A DNA stretch of 64,000 nucleotides from an uncultured Candidatus Saccharibacteria bacterium (GCA_964631145.1 CAZVXT010000002.1:65140-129139), one strand, 5' to 3'. Counted from the first letter of the stretch, positions 13,788 through 18,900 are shown. Notes: generated by a model from the sequence alone, not told the origin. Translations and numbers: made by a program.

Positions 13788-13809
13788 CTGGCGGAGAGGG
13801 AGGGATTCG
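13788..13809 (-). repeat. 22-bp partial copy of the tRNA-Ser 3' end; direct repeat with 18806-18827 and a putative att-site remnant
   Basis: ctggcggagagggagggattcg is identical to the 3' acceptor/T-arm of the tRNA-Ser at 18807-18900; similarity stops exactly where GC content rises. Confidence 0.7.
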
Positions 13810-14140
13810 GTTACCTCACGCTAGTCTCCTCAACACATTCGTTTTGCTCATAGTGTTTCGTCGACATAACGCTGCGGCAACCACCGACGATTTCAACTTG
13901 CCACTGGCAACTTGAAATCTATTTTCTCATCCCCCAAAACCATAAACTTTTATACCACTTCGTGATATAAAAGTTTATGGCGGTGTATGTGGGTATGGTA
14001 CCCATGGTTACAAGTGTTATAAGGGTATTCTAGCATATTTCTCTTTTTGTTTTTAGGGTTTGTGGGTCGGGGTCTATGTTTTGTAAATGCGACAAATGAG
14101 ACACGAAAAGGGCTTATTTGGCTTTGTCTCAATTACAGAA

Positions 14141-15175
14141 TTATTCAGGCTGGCTTATGCTTTCGCTCAAATCATAAGCATCCCCGTGAGACAATAAACC
14201 CTTATATGATGCGACCAATCTGTCTGTGCGATTTTCAGCAAGTTTCTTAAACATCCTCCTTTTTGTGGAAGTTCTTGGCACCCGATGATGCGGAAAATGC
14301 ACCCAGCCGAGAAAATCGACGCCGGAAGCGAGTGTTTTTATAAACACTTTATCCGGATGGAGCGAGAGCTTTAACTCCGTTTCCAAAAACAGCGATATCT
14401 CAGGTAGTATTTTTTCGAGATACTTTCTATCTTCGTGCAGAATTACGAAATCATTGGCATACCTGATACAGTATTCGGCTTTCAGGTTACGCTTCATATA
14501 GTGATCAAATTCATTCATGTATACATTCACTAAAAGTTGAGACGTGAGATTGCCCAGCGTAAGACCTACGCCGGGTCGGCCGTCAGTATGGAAACTACTG
14601 ATTACATCCCACAAGAGATTTACTGTATTGCCATCCGGCATTCTCCGTCTCAAAATATTAACTAAAACTGTATGATCGATATTGGCGAAGAATTTTCGGA
14701 TATCGCATTTTAAAACCCATATGGTGCGCGTATGATTCTTCGAAACTTTCCGTGCATAGTCGCGGAACCTATCAAGCGCCCGGTGTGTGTCTTTCCCGCG
14801 ACGGCAGGAATAGGAGTCGAAAATAAATTTCTGATCGAAATACGGATACAAGACTCTGTAAATAGCGTGATGAAGGAGGTGACCTCGCACGGTTGCTTTA
14901 TGTATATTGCGCGGCTTCGGATCATTGATGCGGAACGCTGTGTATCCGCCGTGGCGGTAAGTTTTCTCGGCAAGGTCGCTACTAAGGGGAATAATATTAT
15001 CGGTAAACCTAACGGAGAATTTTTTGACGTCTTTGCGGCCGCGCTTGCCTTTGAGGAATTCGCGCCATGCTACAAGCAGGTTTTCCACAGAAATGATATT
15101 ATTATAGGTATGAAAAAATCCGGCATTTCCTCTCTCTCTCTCTCTCGGTGGCGCCTCGATTCTCCAGAGAATCAA
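14141..15175 (-). CDS. diversity-generating retroelement reverse transcriptase; the YxDD box reads YAND
   Basis: N-terminal LLVAWREFLKGKRGRKDVKKF; motif 3 KCDIRKFFANIDH; the DGR-type motif 4 GLTLGNLTSQLL (IGNxxSQ in place of the group II QGxxxSP); RYANDFVIL; lies immediately downstream of the TR on the same strand. Confidence 0.85.
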   Translation of the reverse strand: MILWRIEAPPRERERGNAGFFHTYNNIISVENLLVAWREFLKGKRGRKDVKKFSVRFTDNIIPLSSDLAEKTYRHGGYTAFRINDPKPRNIHKATVRGHLLHHAIYRVLYPYFDQKFIFDSYSCRRGKDTHRALDRFRDYARKVSKNHTRTIWVLKCDIRKFFANIDHTVLVNILRRRMPDGNTVNLLWDVISSFHTDGRPGVGLTLGNLTSQLLVNVYMNEFDHYMKRNLKAEYCIRYANDFVILHEDRKYLEKILPEISLFLETELKLSLHPDKVFIKTLASGVDFLGWVHFPHHRVPRTSTKRRMFKKLAENRTDRLVASYKGLLSHGDAYDLSESISQPE

Positions 15176-15530
15176 AGAGGGATATTTGCTGTGGGTAAGT
15201 ATTGTTCCTCATATTTCCAAAGGCACTCGTTATACGATCGTTTCTAGGATATAAAATAAATTCCTAGACCTTCTTGAGCTTACCCATATCGCTTATTTTA
15301 CCGAAAAAGAAAAGAAAGCGGAAAAAATTTCCGAATGCATTTTAACGCTGGATACGCTCAAATTCTTAGTTGCAGTTGCGTGGGAAGGCAAGCTTGTCAC
15401 TAATAAGCAATGCGAAGAGGTGGCTAGAAAGCTTGAAGAAACCGGCAAGATGTTCCACGGCTGGAAGAAAAATCTGGAAAATCCTGAAAAGAAAAACCGC
15501 GACCTCTAAGATCGCGGAAAAGAAGACAGT

Positions 15531-15662
15531 TTCGAAGGCAGAACACGAACTTGTTGTCCGGATTCCACTCGTTGCCGGGATTCGCCCAATCGTTGTTCAG
15601 CCACAAACCGTCATCGTTGCGTTCGAGGTTGAAAACGTTCGGGTTGCCGTCGGAATCGGTTT
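15531..15662 (-). repeat. DGR template repeat (TR), sense on the minus strand
   Basis: ~130-bp near-copy of the target 3' end; in the VR frame it encodes GNPNVFNLERNDDGLWLNNDWANPGNEWNPDNKFVFCL, which is rich in AAC codons. Confidence 0.8.
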
Positions 15663-15934
15663 GTGCGATGCACCGTCAATACCACTGCCCGCCTGGTGCG
15701 CAGAGCGCAAAAGACTGGGCTGAATTTTATGCGTGATCAAGAATCAGCAAATGCACCACACCAAGTATTTTCTTTTTTTAGACTTTGATATAAATCCTCT
15801 CTGCCAAGCCGTAACCGGGCAGACTCTCAACTCATACAAGCCAGAAAGGTCTTGAAAAGCCGTAGCCGTTCAATACAACCTATCTTTCCGTATTATACCG
15901 CTTGATCTGTATTTTGTACCGCTTTTTTGCTAAA

Positions 15935-17849: not shown

Positions 17850-17882
17850 GGAGCGAGTCCGCGCAATTTTTTATCATGAACA
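17850..17882 (+). terminator. GC-rich hairpin plus T-tract ~80 bp downstream of the VR; target-gene terminator and/or the DGR-associated 3' hairpin
   Basis: actcgcggagcgagtccgcgcaatttttt, with two alternative 6-bp stems. Confidence 0.5.
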
Positions 17883-18027
17883 AGAAAGCCAAAAAACCGA
17901 AATTTCAATATCCATTTACGGATAAAGAGCATGAGGAATCATGCAAGTTTTTGACTGTTCGTTTAATGAATACTGTATCTGACAAAGGATCAAAGGTTGA
18001 GCTAACTGAAACTATATACACTGGCGG

Positions 18028-18284
18028 AACGTGAAGGGCTAGAAATTGTAACCATGAAGCGCGAAAGCCATTCCGCGAAAGAGACAGGACAAAGACCAGT
18101 GTTCAACGAAATTATTGAGGAGCTAAGGCATGGTAAATATAACGGCATTCTGACATGGGCACCTGATCGTATATCAAGAAACGCTGGTGACCTTGGAAAA
18201 TCGTAGACCTAATGGATGCTGGAAAACTTCATGAAATACGAACTTTCGGGCAAAAGTTCGGCAATAATCCGAACGAGAAATTTC
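18028..18284 (+). pseudogene. serine recombinase fragment (residues ~50-140 of the catalytic domain), frameshifted; left arm of an inverted duplication
   Basis: Translates to LAEREGLEIVTMKREAHSAKETGQRPVFNEIIEELRHGKYNGILTWAPDRISRNAGDLGK(fs)IVDLMDAGKLHEIRTFGQKFGNNPNEKFLVR; ~75% nt identity to the reverse complement of 18285-18540. Confidence 0.6.
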
Positions 18285-18694
18285 TCGTTCGGAGAATTAC
18301 TAAACTTTTGATTGTAGGTTCGTATCTCAACAAGTAAATGGTTTTCCATAAGGTCAACCAACACACCGAGGTCGCCCGCGTTTCTACTTAAGCGATCTGG
18401 ATTCCATGTGAGAATCGCATTGTATTTACCAGCTCTTAATTCTTCAATCATTTGATTAAAGACAGGTCGTTGTCCAGAATTTTTTGCAGAGTGAGCTTCT
18501 TTTCGCACTGTGGCGATATGGAGGTTATCTCGTTCTGCTATTTGCTTCATTTCTTTAAGCTGTGAATCAATAGACAAAGCTTGTCTTTCTTCATCTTCCA
18601 TTGATTTACGAGCATACAAACAGTATCTAATATCGGGAAGGGGTTTATTTGGTAAGGTCGCCTTTCCCTCAGACCTTTTATTTATATTATTCAT
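18285..18694 (-). pseudogene. serine recombinase N-terminal catalytic domain, truncated at a palindromic junction (the track ORF 18209-18694 reads through the junction into the other arm)
   Basis: YARKSMEDEERQALSIDSQ catalytic-serine motif; homology ends at NEKFLVR, where a perfect 24-bp palindrome ccgaacgagaaatttctcgttcgg (18265-18288) joins the arms. Confidence 0.6.
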
Positions 18695-18806
18695 ATACTC
18701 AAACTCTCATTGAAAAGAAAGTTTGAGTCAAACAAAAAAGAACGATCGAGTCGTTCTTTTTTGTCTAAACCCTAGCTTTGTGGGTCACAAAACTAACAGG
18801 TTTTCC

Positions 18807-18900
18807 TGGCGGAGAGGGAGGGATTCGAACCCTCGGTACGGCTTTACAACCGTACAGCGGTTTAGCAAACCGCCGCACTAGGCCACTATGCGACCTCTCC
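18807..18900 (-). tRNA. tRNA-Ser (anticodon GCT)
   Basis: GGAGAGGTCGCATAGTGG...TTGCTAA anticodon loop...long variable arm...GGTTCGAATCC...GCCA; 94 nt. Confidence 0.85.

Follow-up and report, generated by a model that had tools for sequence, protein, structure and literature searches.

The window analysed here is a stretch of 64,000 nucleotides from an uncultured Candidatus Saccharibacteria bacterium (GCA_964631145.1 CAZVXT010000002.1:65140-129139), with positions counted from its first letter. Directly downstream of a gene for tRNA-Ser(GCT) it carries a GC-rich island of about 5 kb, which contains a diversity-generating retroelement (DGR) and the remains of large serine recombinase (LSR) genes. 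From comparison with related loci, we consider that the interval probably represents integrative elements that gathered into a composite array beside the 3′ end of this tRNA gene and have since decayed, in a genome of the candidate phyla radiation (CPR, or Patescibacteria).

The tRNA-Ser(GCT) gene is the integration target and the island lies downstream of its 3′ end. The foreign sequence starts at 18806, one base past the CCA of the tRNA. A 22-mer (CTGGCGGAGAGGGAGGGATTCG) at 18806-18827 corresponds, in reverse complement, to the tRNA 3′ end between T-loop and encoded CCA with one base added, and recurs exactly at 13788-13809; none of 100 dinucleotide-preserving shuffles gave such a match. The first-pass annotation had taken these two copies as the borders of the island. 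Both are exact, but the window holds three copies and not two: the third, at 7582-7603, is the 3′ end of a tRNA-Ser(TGA) gene (7583-7670, minus strand, ARAGORN). The two tRNA-Ser genes have in fact an identical 32-nt 3′ end (7582-7613 and 18806-18837), in the same orientation and 11 kb apart. This longer repeat is a potential recombination substrate, and contigs of the Logan collection break there.

Composition sets the interval apart from its surroundings. Between 13810 and 18805 the GC content is 45.1%, rising locally to 52-55% in the DGR target gene, against 33.9 ± 1.5% (maximum 36.9%) in the other 5-kb windows, and tetranucleotide counts mark the same interval as the strongest outlier of the 64 kb. 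The compositional step is thus real, but the ~50% first estimated for the island is too high.

A genome scan with ClpC retrieved CPR relatives at 72-79% ClpC identity. The order ClpC-ComF-tRNA-Ser(GCT) is kept in L015, L016 and L018. In L018, a sigma-factor gene (the homologue of window 8964-9545) follows 175 nt after the tRNA, where the window has 9.3 kb; in L015, the tRNA-Ser(GCT) gene is followed by only ~0.4 kb of a repeated unit described below and by no island. The island is therefore absent from the corresponding locus of L018 and L015, which are species different from that of the window (ClpC 74-79% identical). Site-specific integration at the tRNA 3′ end, as proposed in the first-pass annotation, is supported by foreign DNA lying exactly downstream of the tRNA, by the recombinase remnants and by absence from these relatives.

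It is extremely unlikely that the GC transition marks a chimeric assembly. Three other sequencing runs provide Logan contigs that are 99.9-100% identical to the window, and the left junction is covered as well as a palindrome inside the island. Among these contigs, L001 and L002 cross the host flank, the 22-mer and 34 nt further into the unit, L003 and L004 cover 14265-18833 at 99.9-100% identity with an identical palindrome, and L005 and L006 end within tRNA-Ser(GCT). What could speak for a chimera is that the retrieved contigs break at 13843, 14265, 18755-18833 and 18810. However, the contigs that break at the tRNA do so at the 32-nt repeat common to both tRNA-Ser genes, and homology with L177 (a relative treated below) and L015 is continuous across the remaining joints.

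The recombinase remnants show that the island is not one element. Neither a Recombinase (PF07508) nor a zinc ribbon (PF13408) domain is found in the island, which retains only two N-terminal LSR fragments of ~138 aa, called A and B. Fragment A is 88% identical to the database proteins P0002 and P0003. In an alignment with 22 homologues its YARKS motif falls in an invariant column, and it leaves the family alignment exactly after NEKFL, at the centre of a perfect palindrome; its open reading frame (ORF; 18209-18694) continues into the antisense of fragment B. Fragment B is 84-87% identical to P0014, P0086 and P0039 as against 63-67% to fragment A (tblastn), and 75% identical at the nucleotide level to the intact LSR of L177. 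Its orientation toward the tRNA is the usual one for its LSR family. Judged by these identities, A and B belong to two lineages, and the island, a composite, includes two or more recombinase lineages. The serine-recombinase remnants noticed earlier next to the tRNA are present, but as two different fragments instead of one, and the idea of one single integrated element is not supported. Another origin, in which one recombinase gene was duplicated on the spot in inverted orientation and then diverged, was considered and rejected, as A and B are each much closer to database proteins than they are to each other. The second recombinase gene would have come either from a tandem element or from the same element carrying two recombinase genes.

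The palindrome is the tail-to-tail junction of the two fragments. In the window the residues EKFL are encoded as GAG AAA TTT CTC, which is palindromic, and the codons of the LSR family at this position are generally quasi-palindromic. Two convergent LSR genes therefore share the EKFL stretch as a direct repeat. No functional integrase was found at the island edge, and a tyrosine integrase would not fit into either of the two stretches (330 and 200 nt) that are left unassigned.

Proteins homologous to fragment A number more than 1200, nearly all of them from CPR bacteria. Complete genes of the family encode 426-505 aa, mostly ~440-450 (~445 aa in the intact relatives), and the domain set of intact relatives is Resolvase, Recombinase and Zn_ribbon_recom, with PF07508 and PF13408 present in L007 and L177, both intact, as well as in L180, whose copy is truncated at the N-terminus. 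The nearest NCBIfam models are CcrB and XisF, with scores far below the cut-offs (CcrB 110 bits versus 900). A metagenome scan for the family returned 80 loci, 41 of which contain any tRNA. The nearest tRNA lies downstream of the LSR gene in 39 of these 41 loci, on the opposite strand in every one of the 39, and 12 tRNAs are located 76-208 nt from the LSR stop codon. Many tRNA types are represented. The sequences directly after those tRNAs share motifs (for example GACAA..TTATCGRG..GACCSGAG) regardless of the tRNA type, a pattern that would follow from the joining of an element-borne arm to the tRNA at its 3′ terminus or a few bases away. No relevant partial tRNA copy of at least 14 nt was found within 10 kb at the 80 LSR loci.

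Many database copies of the family (among P0002-P0120) are only 127-250 aa long although they lie on long contigs (30-380 kb), and they are truncated at differing points. Decayed LSR copies thus seem to be common in CPR genomes. At L014 (5900-10400), the context of P0008, a frameshifted LSR ends inside tRNA-Ser(GCT), with an opposite ‘tRNA-Ser(ACT)’ 90 nt away, a Phage_CRI replication gene upstream and the second truncated LSR, P0008, 2.5 kb further. This locus was set aside as a different arrangement, uninformative for the island.

The ends of the putative element can be placed by comparison with L177. In this relative, a phage-like region of ~19 kb encodes a helix-turn-helix protein, an M78 peptidase, a ParB-methylase, an AcrVA2-like protein, the DGR reverse transcriptase (RT), avd, the target, HicAB and an intact LSR of 444 aa, and it ends at tRNA-Ser(TGA). 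Its DGR cassette is 73% identical in nucleotide sequence to window 14262-17830, and its LSR matches fragment B better than A, with the same order and orientation: the target, then the LSR toward the tRNA. At the tRNA-proximal side, ATTGACAACCTGTTAGTTTCGTGTCCC right after the L177 tRNA corresponds to the window from 18806 downward (GGAAAACCTGTTAGTTTTGTGACCC), and also to the stretch upstream of the A-type recombinase of L013. This proximal arm includes a hairpin (18732-18764) and the upstream region of fragment A. The motif GACCCACAAAS occurs without mismatch at only two places in the window, 14058-14068 and 18776-18786.

At the distal side, window 13952-14098 matches L177 474-619 at 75%. The homology of the two stops at a pseudo-core: GGGTACCATACCC, 7 nt, then CCGCC. 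Past this point, L177 continues into an ORF ~55 nt further, outside the homology and presumably of the host, and the window continues into the ~210-nt unit. The pseudo-cores of the two loci are element-borne, because they are more alike each other than either resembles its own tRNA; that of the window (13978-14003) shares only CCGCCA with the tRNA end. On the basis of the L177 end homology, the borders of an LSR/DGR element would be placed at ~13984-18806, with a proposed attR junction at CCGCCA (13978-13983). The crossover is inferred, and CCGCCA would be the only sequence common to both junctions. A short common core is the pattern known for serine integrases, for which 2-12 bp and an attP next to the recombinase gene would be expected. 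L177 has no long partial tRNA copy, and a scan of viral contigs for the pseudo-core pattern gave 0 hits.

The remaining ~210 nt between the pseudo-core and the host flank form a structured unit. Its parts are a hairpin of 20 bp (13940-13980), a second, palindromic one with GCCAGTGGC at its centre (13897-13925) and a GGTTGCC/GGTAACC helix, and the orphan 22-mer is its 3′ end. Three further copies are found in L015, after both of its tRNA-Ser genes. The L015 tRNA-Ser(GCT), identical to that of the window, is followed by ~0.4 kb with two partial tRNA 3′ copies (19 and 22 nt), and the third segment follows its tRNA-Ser(TGA). By nhmmer (E = 1e-41 to 1e-50), these three segments are copies of the same unit as window 13788-13998. 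Since the orphan 22-mer is the 3′ end of the unit, the closest available relative possesses the orphan copy without the island. The 22-bp repeat had been read in the first-pass annotation as the att core duplication of the island; with the L177 homology ending at the pseudo-core and the unit occurring three times in L015 outside any island, the repeat is probably not the footprint of the island's own insertion. Just past the tRNA-Ser(GCT) terminator of L015 (13613-13625), inside its first unit, there is an inverted 13-nt copy of the tRNA T-arm (GAGGGATTCGAAC).

As RNA, the unit is predicted to fold at -84 kcal/mol (z = -7.85 versus shuffles), and 21 pairs show compensatory changes among three copies, for example GGTTGCC/GGTAACC versus GGTCGCC/GGTGACC. 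The unit may be a relic or miniature element that is flanked by att sites and carries no genes, or else a structured RNA whose end resembles tRNA-Ser. It is very unlikely that the orphan 22-mer and the unit are unrelated to integration, as a lineage-specific structured RNA gene or a product of tRNA-Ser duplication or gene conversion beside which the island merely landed. Such an origin would suit the strong fold and its compensatory pairs, the occurrence after both tRNA-Ser genes of L015 and a unit start unlike the consensus of the element's proximal arm; duplication or conversion would also suit the 32 nt common to the two tRNA-Ser loci. However, the fold is a predicted one, Rfam at permissive E-values matched only tRNA and noise in 12000-20000, leaving the unit without a match, and the known copies number four, in two genomes, so that the support from covariation is thin. 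Moreover, the copies are always arranged core to core, like accreted att-flanked segments.

Further copies were sought with nhmmer and a covariance model in ~1.2 Mb of related loci, where none was found beyond the window and L015; the covariance model gave weak matches on tRNA-Ser genes, driven by the common 3′ end. A scan of viral contigs for the unit pattern returned 0 hits. The possibility that the unit starts with a recognisable recombinase arm was dropped, as a hidden Markov model (HMM) of the after-tRNA consensus missed the unit starts; the same HMM also missed the window's own proximal arm.

The composite array which we favour would have arisen as follows. Elements distributed across the CPR would encode an LSR of ~445 aa, and this enzyme would join a site on the element to the 3′ extremity of a tRNA gene by recombination. 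On one side of the element site there would be a mimic of the T-arm and acceptor (pseudo T-arm/acceptor) and on the other a conserved arm, so that the tRNA stays intact and few bases, here CCGCCA, are common to both junctions. An element resembling the ~19-kb phage-like region of L177, with RT, avd, template repeat (TR) and target, would have inserted between the tRNA and a pre-existing ~210-nt unit. The tRNA-proximal part now holds the 5′ part of a second, different recombinase gene. A deletion between the EKFL copies may then have removed both C-termini and everything between them, leaving A(1-138)|B(138-1). Afterwards the RT would have lost its catalytic Asp and avd would have gained a stop codon. 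The outcome would be a 5-kb island that can no longer move and whose target gene, diversified in the past, is intact.

Several observations weigh against this scenario. Neither an intact attP nor an empty site in the same species was found among the loci retrieved, and no retrieved Logan contig crosses 13843-14265, a stretch that rests on the window assembly and on cross-genome homology. The exact 22/22 identity of the orphan copy is not accounted for by an LSR event with a short core. L013 has, contiguously and upstream of an A-type recombinase, a unit-like end (GTGACTTGTGAC), a tRNA-Ser-like core of 19 nt and the proximal arm. This layout has the look of an attP with a long core, and it could mean that the 22-nt core belongs to the attP of the element. 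Finally, the diverged partial tRNA-Gln copy at the far end of the L176 island indicates that longer repeats occur in this system.

The last two of these points would fit instead a single 5-kb element (13810-18805), integrated in one event by crossover in the 22-bp core, with the orphan 22-mer as attR and the unit as attP arm. The exact 22-nt repeat and the GC step close to it agree with such an event. So does the kinship of the recombinases: Ccr-type LSRs leave repeats of 15-18 bp, and CcrB is the best, if subthreshold, NCBIfam similarity of this LSR family. We nevertheless regard a single element as unlikely. The orphan core and the unit occur three times in L015 without the island, and the homologous element of L177 has neither unit nor long repeat. 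Furthermore, the homology between the window and L177 stops at 13978-14003, 170 nt inside the proposed element, and the two recombinase fragments are of different lineages.

Returning to the composite array, a more general picture may be drawn, tentatively. One compact LSR family found across the CPR would target the extreme 3′ ends of many tRNA genes through an end mimicking the T-arm and acceptor, and would spread a CPR-specific DGR cassette across genomes of very different GC content; the ~210-nt unit would be a gene-less miniature element mobilised in trans, or a tRNA-like RNA, and offer a second docking site. We hold that all these parts being true together is rather unlikely.

The DGR itself is real, with RT, avd, TR and target gene with variable repeat (VR) in that left-to-right order. 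The retroelement recognised in the first-pass annotation is confirmed by an RVT_1 match on the minus strand and by the comparison of TR (15530-15649, minus strand) with VR (17647-17766, plus strand), in which 15 of the 16 mismatches over 120 positions fall at TR adenines. The VR ends 13 nt ahead of the stop codon of the target gene. However, the RT has a catalytic box YANDF (Asn241, AAT at 14453-14455) where six relatives have YADDF or YMDDF, and in addition GLTLG for GLPLG and KDTH for KGTH. The avd gene contains an in-frame TAA at 15252-15254, a verified stop, where relatives encode Glu. The RT box and the avd stop codon are the grounds for calling the DGR decayed: it is probably dead and can probably no longer diversify its target. 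The target gene is intact and previously diversified, and remains in an immobile 5-kb island. No VR variation was seen among the three sequencing runs, whose three single-nucleotide differences all lie outside the VR.

For the target protein, databases contain over 120 clusters at 75-86% identity, of which all named ones are CPR; it matched nothing in Pfam, NCBIfam or PDB, and a viral-contig scan returned no relatives of it. The layout of 14141-17779 is unusual, with the RT on one strand and avd and target on the other, and is the same in L176, L177, L180 and L183. The TR lies between avd and target in the RT orientation, so that avd would be traversed in antisense by a transcript of TR and RT. 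At ~80 nt downstream of the VR, the expected position for a DGR retrohoming-associated hairpin or for a terminator, there is a GC-rich hairpin (17847-17863) with a T-run.

The DGR cassette is present in at least five genomes at 72-77% nucleotide identity. A tRNA lies near the cassette in all five RT-bearing contexts examined (the window, L176 with its sister assembly L175, L177, L180 and L183), and four of the five, the window included, have a serine recombinase gene or remnant; one is clearly phage-like. In the near-identical assemblies L175 and L176 the cassette is located by tRNA-Gln(TTG), in an island of 45-56% GC within a genome of 30-39% GC. The order in L180 is tRNA-Gln(CTG), LSR fragment, RT, and the cassette of L183 is 57 nt from tRNA-Arg(CCT). 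A related arrangement is seen on an IMG/VR contig, L007, where the target is 31% and the RT 62% identical and an LSR comes immediately behind the RT; a gene for a terminase-like ATPase lies alongside, and the contig also has a ParB-methylase.

In L176, a Paceibacterota metagenome-assembled genome, tRNA-Gln(TTG) and its diverged partial 3′ copy flank the DGR island (7976-8150 and 11950-12080), and a homologous trailer of ~90 nt follows both tRNA-Gln copies (GTGAGACCNAYCGAG...GAACGAGTCATGGGC). The GTGAGACC motif also occurs after tRNA-Arg in L183 and L144. A target homologue outside any such cassette is found at L181 10001-11848 (615 aa, 74% nucleotide identity ending just before the VR), between Mur ligase and GtrA genes of a 52% GC CPR genome, with no RT within 10 kb.

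A higher-GC CPR lineage or its phage would be a reasonable donor for the GC-rich cassette, and nothing points to a donor outside the CPR. A higher-GC organism or phage had been suspected from composition. This remains plausible with the source in the same bacterial group, as L177 offers a phage-like context with flanking genes of ~50% GC. A blastn search of the island against 50,697 phage records, the comparison with phage databases that had been suggested, gave no match, and the island of the window holds no virion or packaging genes.

On the host side of the orphan 22-mer, the two hairpins of 10 and 15 bp that had been likened to terminators do exist, but on the tRNA strand both lack the U-tract that the hairpin behind tRNA-Ser(TGA) possesses, and they are not canonical terminators. 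A homologue search with the 196-aa protein of the flanking gene (13041-13631, minus strand) matched only itself, for which reason the product is considered an ORFan; an exact look-up of the ComF-like protein gave no match. Between the sigma-factor gene and the orphan 22-mer, the window has ~4.2 kb of AT-rich, host-like DNA (9546-13787) with a photolyase-like gene (9949-11361), a Zn-ribbon gene and several ORFans, including that of 13041-13631. This segment has no counterpart in L018 or L015, in both of which the sigma-factor gene comes straight after the tRNA region, and no further tRNA-like repeat at its bounds. The features of the locus are collected in Table 1.

Table 1. Features of the tRNA-Ser(GCT) locus and of the third repeat copy, in window coordinates.
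Feature	Position	Strand	Details
Third exact 22-mer copy	7582-7603	.	3′ end of tRNA-Ser(TGA) 7583-7670, minus strand
Host-side AT-rich hairpins and promoter-like site	13684-13792	.	hairpins 13749-13792 and 13684-13731; promoter-like site for gene 13041-13631
Structured unit, ~210 nt	13788-13983	-	nhmmer match 13788-13998; 13810-13983 non-coding; orphan 22-mer 13788-13809 at 3′ end
Distal arm of the putative LSR/DGR element	13984-14140	-	non-coding; ends in pseudo-core GGGTACCATACCCACATACACCGCCA (13978-14003), apparent mimic of tRNA T-arm and acceptor end
DGR reverse transcriptase	14141-15175	-	RVT_1 E=2e-18; aligned to RTs of L007, L008, L011, L176, L177 and L180
avd (accessory variability determinant) pseudogene	15189-15509	+	86% identical to bAvd-annotated gene of L176
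DGR template repeat	15530-15649	-	120-nt alignment to VR
DGR target gene, intact	15947-17779	+	610 aa; longest ORF starts at 15902; VR 17647-17766
LSR fragment B, pseudogene	17979-18280	+	residues ~40-138; one in-frame stop, one frameshift; points toward tRNA
Perfect 24-nt palindrome CCGAACGAGAAATTTCTCGTTCGG	18269-18292	.	tail-to-tail junction of A and B; PNEKFLVR on both strands; identical in L003 and L004
LSR fragment A	18281-18694	-	residues 1 to ~138 of resolvase catalytic domain (YARKS); PF00239 E=5e-17
tRNA-proximal arm (‘P prime’), 111 nt	18695-18805	-	minus strand from 18806 begins GGAAAACCTGTTAGTTTTGTGACCCACAAAGC
22-mer copy inside tRNA-Ser(GCT)	18806-18827	.	T-loop to CCA, +1 nt
tRNA-Ser(GCT), intact	18807-18900	-	CCA encoded; ARAGORN; Rfam tRNA 56 bits

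For the window itself the message is modest, as it holds an immobile relic. Together with its relatives, however, the locus offers a concrete route by which targeted hypermutation could spread horizontally among CPR bacteria. A serine-integrase family specific for tRNA 3′ ends is also suggested, and might serve as a tool.

Comparable integration behaviour is known from other serine recombinases. In SCCmec (staphylococcal cassette chromosome mec), Ccr recombinases of the LSR type integrate at the extreme 3′ end of rlmH and the gene is kept; composite arrays occur with repeated att-like sequences and recombinase-less att-flanked segments. The window resembles this system in the proposed 3′-end integration that spares a conserved gene, in the composite array and in the putative recombinase-less att-flanked segments. 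It differs in that the target is a tRNA gene and not rlmH, the proteins are shorter (~445 aa) and below the Ccr cut-off, and there is no ccrA/ccrB pair. The characterised large serine integrases of phages (phiC31, Bxb1, TP901-1) mostly target protein-coding genes. With these, the intact relatives share the domain set, a short inferred core, the recombinase gene at the element edge and, in L177 and L007, a phage-like context, but the LSR family of the window is consistently tied to tRNA 3′ ends and the end of the element appears to mimic T-arm and acceptor. At the sites of integrative and conjugative elements (ICEs) of Streptococcus thermophilus, cis-mobilisable elements (CIMEs), short att-flanked segments without recombination genes, persist beside the target gene, in a system served by a tyrosine integrase. 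The window would likewise have a short, gene-less, att-flanked segment in tandem with a larger element; its unit is only ~210 nt long and strongly structured, whereas the CIME system depends on a tyrosine integrase.

The DGRs of the CPR form their own clade (‘clade 2’; Roux et al. 2021, PMC8144416), and a CPR set was described by Wu et al. 2018 (PMC5758913). Both surveys assign them nearly always to cells, with next to no information on an association with phages or on their mobility (PMC8144416, PMC5758913). The cassette of the window agrees with this clade in its set of RT, avd, TR and target, in its limitation to Patescibacteria and in the adenine-specific TR/VR pattern. It differs by residing in LSR-bearing, tRNA-adjacent elements, some of them phage-like, and by being probably inactivated in the window. 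DGRs on horizontally acquired islands with deviant GC content are documented (PMC5758913), and a tRNA-adjacent island with a DGR from Legionella pneumophila Corby is cited in Wu et al. 2018 (PMC5758913). Islands of this type and the one studied here have in common a DGR cargo, horizontal acquisition, atypical GC, a position beside a conserved gene end and recombinase-dependent mobility. The Corby island uses a tyrosine integrase, in contrast to the LSR of the window, which in addition has a CPR host, a probably dead RT, a nonsense codon in avd and truncated recombinases. The locus is thus a further, decayed example of a tRNA-gene island carrying a DGR, a known kind of island in an unusual host group. 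What would go beyond the routine, as far as comparative evidence permits, is the consistent pairing of the DGR cassette with tRNA-facing serine recombinases, the apparently tRNA-mimicking end of the element and the structured unit.

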